A stretch of 37,245 nt of DNA from a virus (taxonomy: Duplodnaviria > Caudoviricetes): IMG/VR virus record IMGVR_UViG_3300004241_000114, positions 1-37,245 of that record, one strand, 5' to 3'. How positions within the stretch are numbered: position 1 is the stretch's first letter; each line of letters opens with the position of its first letter. A program made the translations under genes and the position numbers. Below are positions 3,918 to 31,400 of this stretch, in pieces. The notes below the pieces were generated by a model, which did no database searches, was not told the DNA's origin, and worked only from the letters and a program-made list of their open reading frames with translations.

Positions 3918-4424
3918 ATGATTAAAAGAGGGGATATAAAGTTTCGTGTTGGATCTACATCCAAACCAGGAAACGAGAAACCTTGGGCTATGGCACTTGT
4001 TTATATAGATGCCAGAACAGCACAAGAAGAATTAGATTCACAGTTCGGAAAAGATGGTTGGCACTTCACATGGAGTGAAGTTGTTGGACACCCATACGCA
4101 GTTCATGGTGTTCTTAAATGTAAGTTTGAGGACAGTAAATGGATCGTAAGAGAAGATGTAGGATATCCACAAGCTAATAAAATGACAGAGGATGTCAATG
4201 ATAGTGAGTCTTTAAAGGATGCAGTAAGTGATGCGTTGAAAAGATGTGCAGTCCAGTTTGGAATAGGAAGATTTTTATATGATGCACCTACACTCTTTAC
4301 ATACAATGTAAAGGTAAATGTAAAGGGTTATGTTTCGGGATTTACTCTAGATGGAGACAAAGAGTTAACTGCTAAAGTAGACACTTGGTATAAATTAGTA
4401 GAAAAAGAAAATGAGAACAGTTAA
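3918..4424 (+). CDS. Rad52/Sak-like single-strand annealing protein
   Basis: YIDAR....LD..FG...W and K.AVSDALKRCAVQFGIGRFLY motifs of the Rad52/22 family. Confidence 0.85.
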   Translation: MIKRGDIKFRVGSTSKPGNEKPWAMALVYIDARTAQEELDSQFGKDGWHFTWSEVVGHPYAVHGVLKCKFEDSKWIVREDVGYPQANKMTEDVNDSESLKDAVSDALKRCAVQFGIGRFLYDAPTLFTYNVKVNVKGYVSGFTLDGDKELTAKVDTWYKLVEKENENS

Positions 4425-6924: not shown

Positions 6925-7266
6925 ATGGAGAAGAGAAGTAATTATGAAAAAGAAATAGTCAAAATTGCAGGGATTGTGGAGAAGGAAATGAAGTTGAGTG
7001 GGCTTACTTCTGGGGTTTACATAGAGTGGTTACTAAAGACTTGTAAAAGAGTTGTTGAGAACGAAATGAGTCGTGTGAGAACACAATTAAATCAAGAACT
7101 ATCCAAGGCAAGGGAAGAAGGGAAAATGGAAGTGCTAGAGGAAATGATAAAAGAAAACGGAGGAAATATTATACCAAGCCCAGAAGCCATACCGACACTA
7201 ATGTTTAGAAGAGAAATAAGAGAGTACCTTAATAACAAATTATCTAAATTAAAAGACAATAAGTAA
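6925..7266 (+). CDS. Array hypothetical protein
   Basis: MEK...ELSKAREEG...LSKLKDNK. Confidence 0.75.
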   Translation: MEKRSNYEKEIVKIAGIVEKEMKLSGLTSGVYIEWLLKTCKRVVENEMSRVRTQLNQELSKAREEGKMEVLEEMIKENGGNIIPSPEAIPTLMFRREIREYLNNKLSKLKDNK

Positions 7267-7267
7267 T

Positions 7268-7537
7268 ATGGAAAAGAAAGAAGAACAATTAGCAAGGTTA
7301 TTCCACAACACATATGAGAGATTAGCACCAGAGTTTGGATATACAACAAGGGGAGATACAAAACAGTTTGATAAGAATAGTCCTAATGGAAAGTTAATGG
7401 TAGCAGTATGTAGAGAAGTTATGATTGAAGAACTAGACAAAGCAAGGGAAGAGGGGATGCTAAGTGCAGTCAAGGAGCTTCTCTCCAAAGAGGAATATAG
7501 GGAATTAGAAAAGAAAATATCTAAATTAAAACAATAA
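7268..7537 (+). CDS. Array hypothetical protein
   Basis: MEKKE...ELDKAREEGM...ISKLKQ. Confidence 0.75.
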   Translation: MEKKEEQLARLFHNTYERLAPEFGYTTRGDTKQFDKNSPNGKLMVAVCREVMIEELDKAREEGMLSAVKELLSKEEYRELEKKISKLKQ

Positions 7538-7542
7538 GAGAT

Positions 7543-8001
7543 ATGGAGAAGAAAGAATCAGAACTTATTAGGGCTTTAAGAGAGGATTATGAGAAACTAT
7601 ATGTTAAAGAATATACTACTGGGTGGAGAGAACAGAGGTTAATAAGAAACATTGAACTAGGAATTATGTCGTTGGAAAATACAGAAAGATACATCTCAAG
7701 AGAACTAGACAAAGCAAGGGAAGAGGGGATGAGAGAAGTTTTGGAGAATGAGTTATTTATAGGTGATTATGATGTATTAAAACAAGGATTAAGGATAAGG
7801 ACTGTTGATAGGGAGAACTTTCTAGCACAAATATATAAAACAGTTAAGGAAAAATATAGCTGGGCATTTGGAACTGCTACCTATAAACAAGCACTGAAGA
7901 TGATAGAGAACAGTTTAACATCACAATTAACTCCCTATGTAGGATTGGATGCAATGGTAGATGAAGCAAGGATTGAGGAGTTATCTAAATTAAAACAATA
8001 A
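7543..8001 (+). CDS. Array hypothetical protein
   Basis: MEKKE...ELDKAREEGM...LSKLKQ. Confidence 0.75.
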   Translation: MEKKESELIRALREDYEKLYVKEYTTGWREQRLIRNIELGIMSLENTERYISRELDKAREEGMREVLENELFIGDYDVLKQGLRIRTVDRENFLAQIYKTVKEKYSWAFGTATYKQALKMIENSLTSQLTPYVGLDAMVDEARIEELSKLKQ

Positions 8002-8006
8002 GTAAT

Positions 8007-8402
8007 ATGGAGAAGATAAAAAGATGTTCAAAATGTGGCACAGTATATAACTGCGCATTTTTTGATACACACTTTTGCTTATATGATGATACAGAATTAG
8101 AATTAGTAAAAGATAGTAAAGCACAGGACACCCCAGAGGAGAAAGTATTAGACAGGGATTGTGGGCAAAAGCTTGTTGAAAGAACTCTAGAAGACGGGAC
8201 AAAGGAAATGCAATGGGTTTCGGAATCTCAAGTTAAGGACACTACAGAGGAATGGAAGGAAGGGCTTATGGAAATATGGAACAAAGCTTTGCCATTCAAT
8301 TTTGTCAAATACACAATATTAGAAAATTATGTTAAACAACTCCTAGAAGAGAAAGGAAAAGATATTTATGCCAAGATATTAGATAAACTAAACGATAAGT
8401 AG
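8007..8402 (+). CDS. Array hypothetical protein with N-terminal Cys cluster
   Basis: MEKIKRCSKCG...FC..D; internal QDTPEE/KDTTEE repeat; ends LDKLNDK. Confidence 0.7.
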   Translation: MEKIKRCSKCGTVYNCAFFDTHFCLYDDTELELVKDSKAQDTPEEKVLDRDCGQKLVERTLEDGTKEMQWVSESQVKDTTEEWKEGLMEIWNKALPFNFVKYTILENYVKQLLEEKGKDIYAKILDKLNDK

Positions 8403-8404
8403 AA

Positions 8405-8785
8405 ATGAAAGTAATACATACAGAACTAAAGAACTATAACAGAAGGGCTGATAACTCTGTATCTCTTAAAGTGGACTCTTTAACAGAACTATCAAGTAAA
8501 GCAATAGGTGAAATAGATAGTTATAGAGGTAATATAGCAATAGTAGTCCTAACAGATAGCTTAATAGGAAATGAAATTGATATAAATGTTGATGATATAT
8601 TAGAAGGACTACCAGAAGCAGATCTATATGATAACCACAAAACACCAAGCCAAAGACTTAGAAATGTTTTGTATGTACAGTGTGAACAGAAACTAGGACA
8701 CAAACCTACTAACGAAGAGTTTGCAGATTACTATAAAAGAAAAATGGATGCATTGATAGGTAAAATAAAAGAAACATTAAATTAA
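8405..8785 (+). CDS. Hypothetical phage protein
   Basis: 126-aa tightly packed ORF; KTPSQRLRNVLY segment; function not assigned. Confidence 0.7.
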   Translation: MKVIHTELKNYNRRADNSVSLKVDSLTELSSKAIGEIDSYRGNIAIVVLTDSLIGNEIDINVDDILEGLPEADLYDNHKTPSQRLRNVLYVQCEQKLGHKPTNEEFADYYKRKMDALIGKIKETLN

Positions 8786-12485: not shown

Positions 12486-12740
12486 ATGAATATTGAGGTA
12501 ATAGTTTTAGCAATTCTTTTAGGTCTTGCTATTATAATAAATGGGGTTGTGTCTGTTGTACAGGTTATAACCAACTCTAAAGACAGGAAAGAGCTAGAGA
12601 AGATGGTCAAAGCTAGTAGTTTACAAGAATATACTATGTATCAACCAGAGGAGAAAGAGGAGGAAGAGGTTGAGGATGATAGGTATGTTTCATTAGAAGA
12701 TATAGGTTCAGTCATAGGAGAAGAGGGGGCATTAAAATAG
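12486..12740 (+). CDS. Small single-TM protein with acidic tail
   Basis: N-terminal hydrophobic helix; ATG 5 nt after TGTTATAAT. Confidence 0.7.
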   Translation: MNIEVIVLAILLGLAIIINGVVSVVQVITNSKDRKELEKMVKASSLQEYTMYQPEEKEEEEVEDDRYVSLEDIGSVIGEEGALK

Positions 12741-12752
12741 TAACACTTAAAA

Positions 12753-14429
12753 ATGAAGAGTAATGCTCAAATCTCTGAGGAGAAAGTAAAAGGGGAGAAA
12801 TACAGTAGTACATACTGGACAAAGTATGTTGACGAGAAGTTTGAAGAGAGTAAGAACTGGAGGGGTTCTAATGTAGAGCTTCAGTGGTTTGTTAACTACA
12901 TGTATTATATGGGTTTTCAAAACCTGAAGTTTGATAAACAGACAAAGACATTCACCAATTCAAATAGAAATCCACTAACGTTCTATATTAACTATACCTA
13001 TATGATTGTTAGGGCAGTTAGAAACGCTGTAGTAAGAACACAGCCACAATGGGATGTTGACGCTTTACCATACGGAAAGATAGATGTTGTTGAAAGCCAG
13101 GTACTTGGGGAGTATTTAGCCTTTGAGTTTGACAAATTACAAATGGAAGAGAAGGTAAACAAGTTAGTCTTGTATGGACTTTTGTATGGACTTGGTATCT
13201 TCCAGTATGGATATGATGATATGGCTGACAATGGGGAAGGTAATGTTTGGGTAGATGTACTAGACCCATTTGACACATACATTGATCCTTTTGCTATGAC
13301 AGCAGACGATGCCAGGTATGTTATTAAGATAATGAGTAAACCTTTAGAGCTTGTTAAGCAGAATCCTAACTACGACAAAAAAGCATTGGAGAACTTGGCT
13401 TCTTCAGAGAAAATGAGTGAGAGTGATTATAAAGACTTGATACTCAATAACCTACACGATACAGGATATGTTAAAGGGAATGTACTTCTAAAGGAAGCAT
13501 GGTGCTTAACAGAAGAAGGTGTGAGGGTTATAACTATGTGTGATGGTGAAATACTAAGAAACGAGCTAACAGAGTTTAAGAAGCTACCTTTCATTTTCTA
13601 TCACCCAGATATTAACCTTAACACAGTATATGGAGAAGGTTGGGTTAAGAATATTGTTAACATTAACAAAGCTCTCAACTATCTTGAAACTAGCAGACTT
13701 GAGTACAATATATTGTTTAATAAAGGAAAGATACTTGCACCTAAGGGTAGTTCTATAAAGAACATAACAAACGCTAATGGTCAAGTTATACAGTATAAAC
13801 CAGGGTTTAAACCTGAGGTAATGGATATGAAGCCAATGGGTAGTGATGTAGAAAGACAGATATCAGCACTTGGTGGTTATATGCAACAGATTGGTGCAGC
13901 AAACGAAGCCTTCCTGGGTCAAACACCAGCAGGGGTTAAGAGTGGTGTAGCTATTGAAACACTTGTAGCTAATAACTATGTCAACCTAACAGATTTAATA
14001 AATAACCTTGCTAATTGTTTAGAGGACCTAGGAAAAGCAATACTAGGACTTGGGTATCAGTATCAGAATCTTATGAAGCCATTTAGAAACGACACAGGAG
14101 ATTTAATGGGTATTATTGGTGGTGATATAAACCCAGAAGAATTAGAAGGGTTTGACATACCAGTAGTTCCAATACCAGAGAACCCAGAGGTTAAGGTTAG
14201 AATTACAAGTGGTACAGCTTACACGAAAGAAGGAAAGAAAGAGATTATGCAGAACCTTAGAGCAATGGGAGCAGTATCTAACAGGACATTACTTGAAGCA
14301 TTTGATATAGACCCAGAAGAAGAAGAAACTAGAATGAAAGAAGAAATGGCAGCAATGCAACCAGAGCCTCCTCTTGAAGGAATGGATCCAAACGCACCAC
14401 TACCAGAAGGTATGCAATTAGAGATTTAA
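12753..14429 (+). CDS. Portal protein (podovirus-like)
   Basis: 558 aa after terL; DPFDTYIDP and PF......YGEG motifs; helical composition. Confidence 0.8.
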   Translation: MKSNAQISEEKVKGEKYSSTYWTKYVDEKFEESKNWRGSNVELQWFVNYMYYMGFQNLKFDKQTKTFTNSNRNPLTFYINYTYMIVRAVRNAVVRTQPQWDVDALPYGKIDVVESQVLGEYLAFEFDKLQMEEKVNKLVLYGLLYGLGIFQYGYDDMADNGEGNVWVDVLDPFDTYIDPFAMTADDARYVIKIMSKPLELVKQNPNYDKKALENLASSEKMSESDYKDLILNNLHDTGYVKGNVLLKEAWCLTEEGVRVITMCDGEILRNELTEFKKLPFIFYHPDINLNTVYGEGWVKNIVNINKALNYLETSRLEYNILFNKGKILAPKGSSIKNITNANGQVIQYKPGFKPEVMDMKPMGSDVERQISALGGYMQQIGAANEAFLGQTPAGVKSGVAIETLVANNYVNLTDLINNLANCLEDLGKAILGLGYQYQNLMKPFRNDTGDLMGIIGGDINPEELEGFDIPVVPIPENPEVKVRITSGTAYTKEGKKEIMQNLRAMGAVSNRTLLEAFDIDPEEEETRMKEEMAAMQPEPPLEGMDPNAPLPEGMQLEI

Positions 14430-14449
14430 AAATGTATGGTACAATAAAA

Positions 14450-14515
14450 TAGTGCTTAGATATGGAGACAGAGGATAAAGTCCCCTCTTGCCACTGTCTC
14501 CTTATGTGAGTATTA
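14450..14515 (+). ncRNA. Hairpin RNA with C-rich loop (candidate sRNA or leader element)
   Basis: TAGTGCTTA/TGAGTATTA, ATA/TAT and GGAGACAG/CTGTCTCC stems; loop contains TCCCCTCTTG; TGGTACAAT at 14437-14445. Confidence 0.6.
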
Positions 14516-14583
14516 GCTCTTTAAATATATAAATTGTTTAATCCCGTACGACACAGAAGTCGTTAAAATGTGGGAACTACAAA

Positions 14584-15330
14584 ATGGAAGAAGTAGTAAA
14601 CGCTGTAAATACAACGGAAGCACCCGTTACTGAGTCAGCATCGGTAGAAGAAAGCACTGTACAAGAATCTATGGACACGTCAGAGAAGACGGAAATCTCT
14701 CAGGATGACAAACAGGTTGATTCAGGAGTTTCTAAACCAGTCGAGAAAGAGTCTAGGGTAATCCCTTATGACAGATTTCAAGAAAAGGTACAGGAAGCCA
14801 ATGAATACAAAGCCAGACTTGAAGCTATAGAAGCTGATAGGATGGAGCAGGAAAGACTTGCTAATTTGGAGCCAGAAGAAAGAGCAAAGGAGGGTCAGCT
14901 ACAAAAAGCTAAAGAGACCTTGCGAAAGCTAGGTTTTGTTACTCAAGAAGAGCAACAAGCAATAGTGGAACAGAAACTCCAGGAAGAAAAAGCTCGTAAC
15001 TGGTTTGTTAGTGAAATGAATCGTCTTGAGTCAAAGTATGACGGAAAAGACGGATCACCAGCTTTCAGATCAACAGAAATAGCTGAGTTTATGGATGAGC
15101 AGATGTCTAAGGGTCAACATATTACAGACCCCGAGACAGCATACAAACTCATGAACTATGACGCTATAGTTGACGCAAAAGCAAAGTCCCAAAGAAGCTC
15201 TGCCTATTCAGAAAAGCAGTCTGGAGGAGTTCAGCAAATGACAGACAGTAGGAGTGCAGACTTAGAAGCTGCAGCCCAATCTGGAGACATTAGAAGTTTC
15301 TTAAAGAAATACGCTGGACCAAAACAATAG
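14584..15330 (+). CDS. Capsid scaffolding protein
   Basis: Acidic N-terminus, IPYDRF.E motif, coiled coil, position before the capsid gene. Confidence 0.75.
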   Translation: MEEVVNAVNTTEAPVTESASVEESTVQESMDTSEKTEISQDDKQVDSGVSKPVEKESRVIPYDRFQEKVQEANEYKARLEAIEADRMEQERLANLEPEERAKEGQLQKAKETLRKLGFVTQEEQQAIVEQKLQEEKARNWFVSEMNRLESKYDGKDGSPAFRSTEIAEFMDEQMSKGQHITDPETAYKLMNYDAIVDAKAKSQRSSAYSEKQSGGVQQMTDSRSADLEAAAQSGDIRSFLKKYAGPKQ

Positions 15331-15358
15331 AGGGATTTTAATTTGATTAAATATAGAA

Positions 15359-16237
15359 ATGGCAGTATATCAAACATACGATGCAGCTACAAATCATGAA
15401 GATTTGACAGATGTCTTAACAAAGCTCGGTCAGATGGACACACCAGTTTACGCTGGTTTGAGAAAAGTAGCAGCAAAGAATACTCTACACGAGTGGAGTA
15501 CATACGACTACGCAACAGCAACAGCTAATGCACAAGTCGAAGGAGCAACTTTCTCTTATGGAACACTAACAGCTCCATCAAGACTAAGTAACTACACCCA
15601 GATTTTCAGTAAAACCTTTCAGGTATCTGAGACTCAACAGGCTGTAGATCCAGCAGGAATGGAAGACGAGTATGCTTTCAGAGTAGAAGTAGCACTTAAA
15701 GAGATTGGTAGAGATATCGAGAAAGCTCTTGTAGATGGTACAGGAAACTCAGGAGCATCTGGAACAGCAAGAGAACTTAAAGGTATTCTTGCTTACATCA
15801 CAAACAATATATCTACTGGTACGGGTACTGGTAGGGCATTGACAGAAAGTGAATTGAACGGATTACTCCAAGATGTTCACTCTGATGGTGGAAACCCAGA
15901 CTGGTTACTTGGTTCCTTCAGACAGAAGAGAGCAGTAGCAGAATTAGCTTCAGCTAACAGAAGATATGTAGATGGTCAAAAGACATTTACTTCAGCTGTT
16001 GACGTTTACGAATCACCATTCGGACTCATGAGAGTTGATGGAGATAGTCAAATGGACTCAGACACACTATGTGCTTTATCAAAAGACATGTGGGCTGTAG
16101 CTCAACTAAGACCTGTTGCTAAGATGGACACACCAAAGACAGCAGACGCAAAGAACGGAGTTGTAATAGGTGAGTTGACACTTGAGTCAAGAGCAGACTC
16201 TTACAATGGTAAGATAACTGGACTTAAAGCAACTTAG
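15359..16237 (+). CDS. Major capsid protein (DUF5309/SU10-like)
   Basis: EDL.D.L....DTP, HEW, NYTQIF.K...VS.TQ, R.L.GI, GE.TLE motifs; followed by a terminator. Confidence 0.85.
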   Translation: MAVYQTYDAATNHEDLTDVLTKLGQMDTPVYAGLRKVAAKNTLHEWSTYDYATATANAQVEGATFSYGTLTAPSRLSNYTQIFSKTFQVSETQQAVDPAGMEDEYAFRVEVALKEIGRDIEKALVDGTGNSGASGTARELKGILAYITNNISTGTGTGRALTESELNGLLQDVHSDGGNPDWLLGSFRQKRAVAELASANRRYVDGQKTFTSAVDVYESPFGLMRVDGDSQMDSDTLCALSKDMWAVAQLRPVAKMDTPKTADAKNGVVIGELTLESRADSYNGKITGLKAT

Positions 16238-16303: not shown

Positions 16304-16708
16304 ATGCTAGTAGATGACACAGGAAAACCCTTAGAGGGGTCAAAGAGTAAAGACGAAGTTATGAAAATACTTGAAAAACTTGCTCCAAAGAATAAAGAAG
16401 AGGAGAGAATACTGGCTCAAAAGATAGGGCAGAGTATAGAAGCTAATAGAAAGGCTAAAGTAGGTAAGGGAATAGAGACTGGCTTTGATGGTTTATTCCA
16501 GGAGAACCTACAAGAGAGAGTTAAAGGGGACAGTTTCACCAAAGAGAGAACTATGAGAAGAATTGCAAGTATTCCAAGAGAAATGGTATATATTGCAGAG
16601 AGTATTTGGGGACCTAATGTTCTTACAGACCCTGTATTATTCAGAGAGGCGTTTGTAAAAGACGAAACAGGACAGTTTTGTTTAACAGTAGATCCTAAAA
16701 CTATATAA
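16304..16708 (+). CDS. Hypothetical protein
   Basis: 134 aa; ATG 5 nt after TGTTATAAT; RRIASIP segment. Confidence 0.7.
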   Translation: MLVDDTGKPLEGSKSKDEVMKILEKLAPKNKEEERILAQKIGQSIEANRKAKVGKGIETGFDGLFQENLQERVKGDSFTKERTMRRIASIPREMVYIAESIWGPNVLTDPVLFREAFVKDETGQFCLTVDPKTI

Positions 16709-16724
16709 ATTGAGGGGAAAACCC

Positions 16725-17891: not shown

Positions 17892-17943
17892 TGTGTTATA
17901 ATTAAATAGATAAGAGGGGGAAGTTATTTGATTATTAAAAAAA

Positions 17944-18606
17944 ATGACATTCCTTGAAATGCAGACAGAGGTTGGAGATCTTCTTAATTATGCAGTTGCT
18001 TCTGGAAGTACAATAACAACAACTCAGGTTAAGAGGGATTTAAACACGGCAAAGGATATTGTTTTCAATAGACTCGTTTCACTAGGACAAGATTATAATG
18101 CAAGGCTTACTAAAGCCAATTTAGTTGCAAACCAATCTTTGTATGGGTTGCCAAGCGATTGTAGAAAGATTTTAAGAGTAGAAGTAGGTTATGAGACTAG
18201 CAGTGATAGGTTTAAAGCTAGAAGAATGGATGGAAACGAAGAGAATGATCCTGTTTATACTACTTATGTAGAAACTTCACCAAGATATGTTGTAAGAGGT
18301 AGTAATATAGAGTTAAAACCAACACCAAGTAGCAATGTTACAGACGGATTACAACTTCTTTATGTAGAAGATTTAGCAGACATGACAGATAATACAGATA
18401 CCTCAGGGCTTCCTTTTGAGTATGATTACCTTTTAACGTTGTATTCAGCAGGAAAAGGTAAGTATAAACTAGGACTAGCAGAAGAAGGTAACAACTATAT
18501 GGCACAGTTTAGGTTAGGTTTGGATGATATGGAGCAGCAAGTTATAGAAAGGAATATGGATGACAGTCCTTCTATAATTATAAGAGATGAGTATGGTGGA
18601 TTATAA
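17944..18606 (+). CDS. Head-tail adaptor protein
   Basis: MTF.EM...V, YGLPSD, I.L.PTP, LP..Y pattern of podoviral adaptors; position. Confidence 0.65.
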   Translation: MTFLEMQTEVGDLLNYAVASGSTITTTQVKRDLNTAKDIVFNRLVSLGQDYNARLTKANLVANQSLYGLPSDCRKILRVEVGYETSSDRFKARRMDGNEENDPVYTTYVETSPRYVVRGSNIELKPTPSSNVTDGLQLLYVEDLADMTDNTDTSGLPFEYDYLLTLYSAGKGKYKLGLAEEGNNYMAQFRLGLDDMEQQVIERNMDDSPSIIIRDEYGGL

Positions 18607-26243: not shown

Positions 26244-26296
26244 TGTGTTATAATATTATTAGATAAAAGAGGGGTATTTATTTGAATACCTATGAA

Positions 26297-31365: not shown

Positions 31366-31400
31366 TGATATAATGAAATATTAAGTTAACCAAGAGGGGT

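Follow-up and report, generated by a model that had tools for sequence, protein, structure and literature searches.

A conserved hairpin RNA of an SU10-like podophage, complementary to tags in leaders of its own virion genes: a candidate trans-acting regulator

The gap between the portal and scaffold genes of an SU10-like podophage encodes a long hairpin with a C-rich loop, which is apparently a real, conserved and undescribed phage regulatory RNA. Judged from complementarity and covariation, the loop very probably pairs in trans with leaders of the phage's own mRNAs. In the full reading that we prefer (probability about 0.55, based on folding predictions), the hairpin would be a trans-acting RNA that activates the translation of virion genes, and near-AUG targets are probably also blocked by it. 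An earlier note on this DNA had proposed a phage RNA that coordinates virion genes in trans, and loop-tag covariation, the predicted exposure of the seed and the spacing of one class of sites (class I, below) lend support to this proposal.

The window, i.e. the whole stretch of DNA analysed here (37,245 bp), is the complete record of the source phage. Its landmarks are as follows:

Terminase gene, 11090
Portal gene, 12753-14429
Putative scaffold gene, 14584-15330
Major capsid gene (PF17236), ATG at 15359
SU10 adaptor gene, ATG at 17944

A tail fibre, a LysM protein and several glycosyl- and methyltransferases are also encoded. Two scans, covering 41 and 30 proteins of the window, revealed neither a polymerase nor a sigma factor, and no tyrosine integrase was found in 5/5 relatives. 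Late-gene control in phages is usually explained by proteins, namely phage polymerases, sigma factors and antiterminators; the virion operons of this phage family appear to use host-type promoters. Among GenBank phages, capsid identity was at most 39% in the 15 matches listed and below 60% in all 309. A scan of species genomes for the host yielded four loci, one a close match (4.4-kb contig) and three distant, and did not identify the host; a search of the Atlas with the scaffold protein returned viral clusters only, and the small-subunit rRNA end pattern was found at two loci in viral contigs, both unrelated. Methanofastidiosa, a single MAG label among the cluster names, was rejected as host and taken as a likely misbin. 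The promoter and leader style is reminiscent of Patescibacteria, a candidate host group on style only. The anti-Shine-Dalgarno (SD) sequence is described as frequently absent in part of Parcubacteria in PMC9297842.

In six genomes, 28/249 ORFs look leaderless (TATAAT-like hexamer 3-8 nt 5' of the ATG), and on this count the idea that the phage genes are mostly leaderless was rejected. An SD-like 5-mer is present in only 20/221 of the remaining, non-leaderless ORFs, and the commonest leader signal is an A/U-rich element that peaks at -21..-15. As to gene content, sugar-modifying genes are numerous for a 37-kb phage (1388-3827, 9428-10288, 16725-17891, 22399-23268 and 31401-33336); the set consists of an IspD-like/dehydrogenase fusion, a LicD/methyltransferase, an epimerase and four glycosyltransferase-like genes, and virion or host-surface glycosylation is a possible role. 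Small early ORFs lie in a row at 6925-8785; their leaders (ATCTAAATTAAAA...AATAAG) are nearly identical, and the stretch ELDKAREEG recurs in their coding sequence.

The hairpin and the elements around it are the following:

14437..14445, + strand: promoter-like extended -10 (TG-N-TACAAT), TGGTACAAT, recognized by sequence
14450..14515, + strand: putative anti-leader RNA hairpin with a 20-bp core, 3 G.U pairs and two 1x1 mismatches (fold z, pairs and covariation)
14479..14490, + strand: apical segment containing CCCCTCTT, which is complementary to the leader tag and would serve for recognition (sole - strand match, accessibility and covariation)
14516..14541, + strand: conserved linker, GCTCTTT followed by an A/U-rich TAAATT element
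14542..14575, + strand: second conserved stem-loop, in the scaffold leader, retained in a relative (L235) that lacks the anti-leader hairpin

The 66-nt hairpin at 14450-14515 after TGGTACAAT, previously described as having about 20 bp with 3 G.U pairs, was borne out: the core has 20 bp including exactly 3 G.U, the apex adds 5 weak pairs, and the fold (-29 kcal/mol, z -4.26) was matched in stability by 0/200 shuffles. It begins 4 nt 3' of the extended -10, and the predicted transcription start (~14451-14453) is at its foot. Concerning a discrete small RNA, this promoter-like site is present; no intrinsic terminator was called behind the hairpin or in the window, where just three T follow the stem, and the hairpin may therefore be the 5' end of the scaffold-capsid mRNA and not a free sRNA. 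The loop does carry the motif reported at 14482-14489, and its CCCC is well exposed (unpaired probability 0.99-1.00 at 14482-14484 and 0.68 at 14485), but the CTT part is weakly paired, giving a probability of 0.016 that all 8 nt are free and an opening cost of 2.5 kcal/mol. Occlusion of the loop is not predicted in the family: the seed is exposed in the folds of all relatives folded, and partly exposed in the window.

At the gathering score, no Rfam family (RsaE/RoxS, RNAIII and c4 included) matched the window, and six relatives searched at E<=1 gave one chance match only (E 0.64, elsewhere in the locus). The literature searched contained no description of the hairpin, and an unnamed entry is possible in the supplements of RNA-motif surveys or in subscription papers. 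The stem-loop at 14542-14575, which carries a GTTAAAATGT motif just 5' of the scaffold start, occurs in all close relatives and in L235; because it is retained in that hairpin-less relative, it is regarded as a separate element. It is a candidate site of scaffold autoregulation, by analogy with the scaffold autoregulation of P22.

Relatives were obtained from capsid and portal scans of viral and metagenome contigs, in which many loci represent one contig found twice. When the portal-scaffold gap was folded in 76 loci, 72 showed one long hairpin whose tip is C-rich; the remaining four are distant, truncated or outgroup loci, and two further hairpins were located by hand. The covariation count given below omits L033 as distant, L074 and L091 because they are interrupted or cut short at the gap, and L131 for lack of a hairpin; it includes the hand-added L128 and L133. 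The metagenome loci with a gap (n=50) comprise 44 with known tips, four with new C-rich tips and two without (distant; portal 38% and 29%). In 19 aligned copies of the stem, 93.6% of the cells are paired and 14/18 consensus pairs show compensatory changes, a covariation that exceeds 500/500 shuffles and every slid control; the internal-loop positions are also conserved. A model built from these copies finds one match per genome, at the portal-scaffold junction (18 matches in 42 sources; 4/5 records), and also recovers clade C loci and L129/L130/L133, none of which was used to build it. It missed L028 and L128.

In clades A and B, the hairpin lies 3' of the promoter and directly 5' of the scaffold A/U element, and in clade C it directly follows the portal stop codon, 5' of the promoter. 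The promoter-like motif TGnTA[T/C/A]AAT was found 5' of the hairpin in 20/39 distinct relative contexts, 3' in 12 (clade C) and on neither side in seven. At the edge of the family, L235 (portal 38%; one 4.7-kb contig) has neither hairpin nor tag and keeps the A/U element and the scaffold stem-loop. G008/L131 (portal 42%, 91% complete) contains tag-like stretches 5' of the portal and capsid genes, and no hairpin was found in its 35.9 kb; low-complexity GGC(T/G)ATGGC repeats are also present in this outgroup phage (G008 34211-34543). Other variants of the gap were observed. In L010-L012 and L040, the hairpin is separated from the scaffold leader by an extra insertion of ~90 nt whose arms are self-complementary. 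In clade C (L103:1725-1850 and others), the first bases after the internal promoter are complementary to the 5' foot of the hairpin and could form an alternative helix (10 bp, 94.9% of cells paired, only 2 compensatory pairs, 15/500 shuffles), and L103, L110, L111 and L126 have a tag in the scaffold leader as well.

The complement of the loop, AAGAGGGG, is present at all seven + strand places listed in the earlier note. It has 8 matches in the window against 2.16+/-1.52 expected, a number reached in 1/100 shuffles, which is a modest enrichment for the AAGAGGGG count alone. Its single - strand match is the hairpin loop itself, and among 8-mers with at least 4 G/C, no other is common to at least 3 of the 42 leaders of the window. 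The sites are listed below; class I and class II are defined by their distance from the start codon, and cis-lock denotes a predicted pairing of the tag with its own start region.

3926..3935, + strand: candidate site at +9 to +18 of an Erf/Rad52-like gene
12721..12730, + strand: class I tag of the portal gene (ATG 12753), within the end of an 84-aa ORF; predicted cis partner 12761-12768
15329..15336, + strand: weaker class I tag ahead of the major capsid ATG (15359); folding predicts no cis-lock
16712..16718, + strand: class II (near-AUG) tag of a 388-aa glycosyltransferase gene (ATG 16725), at -13..-7
17894..17955, + strand: leader of the SU10-type adaptor gene (ATG 17944), with promoter-like TGTTATAAT at 17894-17902 and a class I tag at 17912-17921
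17917-17929 with 17942-17955, + strand: adaptor cis-lock over the AUG, predicted by folding
26267..26291, + strand: class I tag of the LysM gene, whose start was moved to ATG 26297; predicted cis hairpin 26272-26279/26284-26291
31391..31399, + strand: class II tag of a DUF616/TOD1_MUCI70 glycosyltransferase-like gene (ATG 31401), 1 nt before the ATG

The partial tag previously seen before the capsid gene (15329) thus corresponds to the weaker class I tag, and the site of the 388-aa glycosyltransferase gene (ATG 16725, -13..-7) had been overlooked. The matches at 7449 and 7721 were rejected as targets; both belong to the recurring ELDKAREEG coding stretch (GAA GAG GGG) and appear incidental. 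The window's own copy of a 493-aa virion gene has no tag. Ranking by duplex energy alone, genome-wide, did not single out the leaders, many coding sites being equally high.

Distances between tag and ATG, earlier given as 1 to ~25 nt, are not scattered but fall into two classes. Class I tags of the window lie 24 nt (portal, capsid and adaptor) or 22 nt (LysM, from ATG 26297) from the ATG. Across relatives, the class I spacer from the end of the G core to the ATG is 22-26 nt in 52/52 distinct portal leaders, 23-26 nt in 37/39 capsid leaders and 21-26 nt in 21/21 adaptor leaders, and the LysM gene and the 493-aa virion gene carry a class I tag in most relatives. The class I duplex ends where the A/U-rich element (-21..-15) begins. 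In adaptor leaders, the promoter distance ranges from -46 to -60 while the tag-ATG distance is constant. Class II tags, which belong to glycosyltransferase genes and some early genes, are at most 14 nt away from the ATG, and in G002/G003 the sites overlap the ATG. Exact 7-mer complements of the loops, hand-picked from the loops of 15 related sequences, fall within -36..-1 of an ATG in 33/70 cases against 3.4 expected, a tenfold enrichment. In the same window of positions, control genes score 9.9-11.9 for complementarity compared with 17-20; the mean best score is lowest for capsid sites (17.5) and highest for adaptor sites (20.3). Other observations concern neighbouring leaders. The 134-aa gene after the capsid terminator (16304-16708 and homologues) is leaderless in clades A/B, but in clade C and L070 it lacks a promoter and carries a near-AUG tag. 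In the capsid leaders of L002, L003, L013 and L213, the tag is duplicated, and the upstream copy is predicted to form part of a 10-12 bp hairpin covering the A/U element, possibly a second type of lock.

The view that the tag is not the host SD sequence holds for class I, whose spacer of 21-26 nt is too long compared with an SD spacer of about 5-10 nt. It does not hold throughout class II: of the glycosyltransferase sites, 30/36 have an SD-like spacer of 5-10 nt and 5/36 a spacer of 0-3 nt, and some class II sites may double as ordinary SD sequences while some cannot. It was considered whether both tag and loop follow an element of the host (16S tail, sRNA or protein), with the hairpin as a decoy or mimic that has no direct action on mRNAs. 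The CCUC/GAGG core resembles the anti-SD/SD pair, class II spacing is SD-like, and G008 has tag-like stretches where no hairpin was found; PMC10783764 describes a CCUCC core. However, the lineage-specific flanks differ between sisters separated by 0.08 substitutions per site, a pace well beyond that of a 16S tail, the L071 tag GAGAGC is not SD-like, and L235 is without both hairpin and tag. A search with a narrow pattern for clade B leaders also revealed no other phage family that uses it (25 non-family loci of 29 inspected), which is a weak test. Tracking of a host element thus appears very improbable.

The loop and the leader tag covary across relatives, as far as sequence comparison can tell. 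The loop/tag pairs are as follows:

Window: CCCCTCTT/AAGAGGGG
Relatives: AACCCC/GGGGTT; ATCCTCG/CGAGGAT; TTCCTCGA/TCGAGGAA; CTCCTCGA/TCGAGGAG
Relatives: TTCCTCGG/CCGAGG; TTCCTCTAT/ATAGAGGAA; ACCTCTCGT/ACGAGAGGT
L071: TTGCTCTCGTT/AACGAGAGCAA

For L070 and L071, the portal leaders were seen before the loops, and the loops then matched; the L070 loop has a perfect 9-nt complement in its own adaptor tag. When cognate and swapped loops were compared for 21 loop types from 74 loci, 0/100,000 permutations were as good as the cognate arrangement by two scoring methods. Independent variation of loop and leader, named at the outset as an outcome that would speak against trans pairing, was not the general pattern, and the clearest single event is in the sisters L028/L209 (0.08 substitutions per site), in which one seed base of the loop differs (CCTC-TA to CCTC-GA) and the tags change in parallel (TA-GAGG to TC-GAGG) in the portal, capsid and glycosyltransferase leaders. 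Exceptions are L018, in which the tags of adaptor, capsid and glycosyltransferase match the clade B loop instead of its own, and G008, whose tag-like stretches stand in a genome where no hairpin was found.

Because the 21 loop types are related, the portal tree was used for tree-aware tests. The swap sign test on 12 branch-independent pairs was not significant (5 plus/4 minus/3 ties; 8 plus/3 minus, p 0.23). Five large contrasts in these pairs are all positive (+16 to +50), and the negative ones range from -1 to -4 and mostly share the same loop core. A single loop position followed on the tree gave ~2/4 concordant pairs and 0 opposite (p 0.5). This outcome would suit a hairpin that is only a 5' stabiliser, an RNase III site or a terminator, the complementarity reflecting shared ancestry and purine-rich strand bias, as would the position of the long stem at the predicted transcript 5' end or just past the portal stop (clade C). 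Such a hairpin does not account for base-specific parallel changes in three unlinked leaders, or for the tenfold positional enrichment and fixed spacing, and we consider this explanation extremely improbable.

The direction of the effect was approached by folding. It revealed a feature of adaptor mRNAs that is absent from the earlier note, namely a predicted pairing of the tag with codons 2-4, which closes the AUG in a stem. With shuffled spacers and synonymous codons as controls, this cis-lock is above control in 30/34 leaders, with p<=0.05 in 23/34, and swapped leader-codon pairs equalled the cognate ones in 12/20,000 trials. When the tag is held single-stranded, the unpaired probability of +1..+12 rises from 0.21 to 0.47, with a gain of >0.1 in 15/18. 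LysM leaders form short hairpins with lineage-matched partners (5/5 above control, 1 significant; a thin sample), and the lock of the 493-aa gene is above control in 7/9 (3 significant). The portal lock is at chance level (28/58 above control) and that of the capsid is absent (10/45). According to these models, unlocking accounts well for the adaptor and not at all for the capsid; because the capsid site is conserved without a lock, the capsid gene would need another benefit, such as 5' protection or ribosome positioning, or else the site would be repressive. The net trans-binding energy, with loop-geometry penalties ignored, averages -4.6 kcal/mol (range +0.9 to -12.7), and because these energies are modest, co-transcriptional capture or a helper protein may be needed. 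RNAcofold, which cannot represent loop-strand pairing, returned no interaction.

The preferred reading, activation in trans, can be set out as follows. The RNA would be transcribed from the promoter-like element at 14437-14445, likely as the leading segment of the scaffold-capsid transcript (in clade C, as the 3' UTR of portal), and possibly be released by processing. Adaptor mRNA is predicted to conceal its own start through pairing between the tag and the start region, and the mRNAs of LysM, the 493-aa virion gene and some portals are predicted to do so less clearly. Capture of the tag by the loop would then free the start, as in an anti-antisense riboregulator. In the lock-less capsid and most portal mRNAs, the duplex may shield the 5' side from exonucleases or place the stem beside the 30S subunit, and sites within 14 nt of the AUG (glycosyltransferases and some early genes) would be blocked. 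Because two RNAs are needed, output would rise steeply with phage copy number, which could provide late timing from host-type promoters.

The same pairing might instead repress both site classes, the RNA beside the A/U enhancer hindering S1/30S loading as in SgrS-manY, so that low-copy virion proteins with strong sites are damped relative to the capsid with its weak site. The scores run in this direction (capsid 17.5, adaptor 20.3), near-AUG sites with a 0-3 nt spacer (5/36) or overlapping the ATG (G002/G003) can hardly activate, and SgrS-manY provides a precedent, as far as described in bioRxiv 10.1101/808485. Yet the class I duplex stops at the edge of the A/U element and does not cover it, and in the predicted fold of adaptor leaders it is the tag that conceals the AUG, so that its capture should expose the start. 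General repression is thus rather unlikely. A likeness to the staphylococcal RNAs RsaE and RNAIII, suggested earlier, is apt for a C-rich loop facing a G-rich leader, but that likeness suggests repression, and the adaptor cis-lock points to activation.

It is also conceivable that the hairpin is a ribosome-positioning adaptor or trans enhancer, with the stem contacting 30S or a protein while the loop grips the mRNA at a set distance from the P site; it would replace the SD interaction in a host that makes scant use of it, and help the scaffold mRNA likewise in cis. The tightness of the spacer (about +/-2 nt), which equals that of SD spacing, is consistent with such a role, as are the conservation of the capsid site with no cis-lock to open, the presence of SD-like 5-mers in only 20/221 non-leaderless ORFs and the conserved internal-loop positions. 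The hairpin of clades A/B is immediately 5' of the scaffold A/U element, and where it precedes the promoter, several scaffold leaders contain a tag or can pair over 10 bp with the foot of the hairpin. The analysis yielded no binding partner, though, the near-AUG class differs in geometry, and tight spacing could equally mark the nearest free position outside the ribosome footprint; positioning as the primary function seems distinctly unlikely. A bolder version, which we hold to be doubtful, is a lineage-specific "trans anti-SD" adaptor that holds virion mRNAs at a constant spacing from the start codon, positions or delivers the ribosome in a host with hardly any SD pairing and locks out near-AUG targets. 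If so, the phage would have an RNA-only late-gene switch with an orthogonal key for each lineage, and a hairpin still on the scaffold-capsid mRNA could gather virion mRNAs for co-translational head assembly.

If activation in trans is correct, one RNA that unlocks virion mRNAs and perhaps blocks others would be a post-transcriptional late switch. The approximately nine natural loop classes with matched tags are ready-made compensatory mutants, and the system bears on how translation is tuned in bacteria with little SD use.

By analogy, the hairpin would work like C-rich-seed activators (RoxS and FasX) and anti-antisense RNAs, outside any Rfam family. It has the conserved structure and exposed seed of a trans base-pairing RNA, and the seed is complementary to several unlinked targets with compensatory change (the tree-aware sign test not being significant). 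In DsrA/RprA-rpoS, RNAIII-hla and engineered riboregulators, a trans RNA captures the strand that otherwise hides the start region. Similarly, the adaptor target site is predicted to pair in cis with the initiation region (23/34 leaders at p<=0.05); this pairing is weak for the portal and not found for the capsid, which has a site without a lock. Unlike these activators, the phage RNA has a seed that is a 7-9 nt hairpin loop with many targets, and the lock often uses codons 2-4. Among phages, the c4 RNA of P1/P7 is phage-encoded and acts by base pairing. So do sar, OOP, aQ, 24B_1, VpdS and PreS, which pair with phage or host mRNAs and control lysogeny, replication, lysis or exclusion; in the available text of PMC12197685, none is described as activating several virion-gene leaders. 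In SgrS-manY, pairing likewise occurs 5' of the initiation region, near a U/A-rich enhancer and in an upstream-gene tail or spacer, but SgrS covers the enhancer and represses with Hfq, whereas the phage duplex abuts the A/U element (10.1101/808485, as far as that source describes it). RoxS of B. subtilis and FasX of Streptococcus also pair through a C-rich seed with a G-rich stretch near the mRNA 5' end, and RoxS shields yflS against RNase J1 and promotes 30S binding, according to PMC5419742. The phage adaptor and LysM tags are similarly near predicted 5' ends, and the portal and capsid tags are internal. In contrast to RoxS and FasX as portrayed there, the phage RNA is one long hairpin aimed at its own virion regulon through a lineage-specific seed, its tag-AUG distance is fixed more tightly than its tag-promoter distance, and there is no sequence kinship (no Rfam match). 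If the preferred reading is true, the hairpin is a natural, multi-target counterpart of engineered riboregulators.
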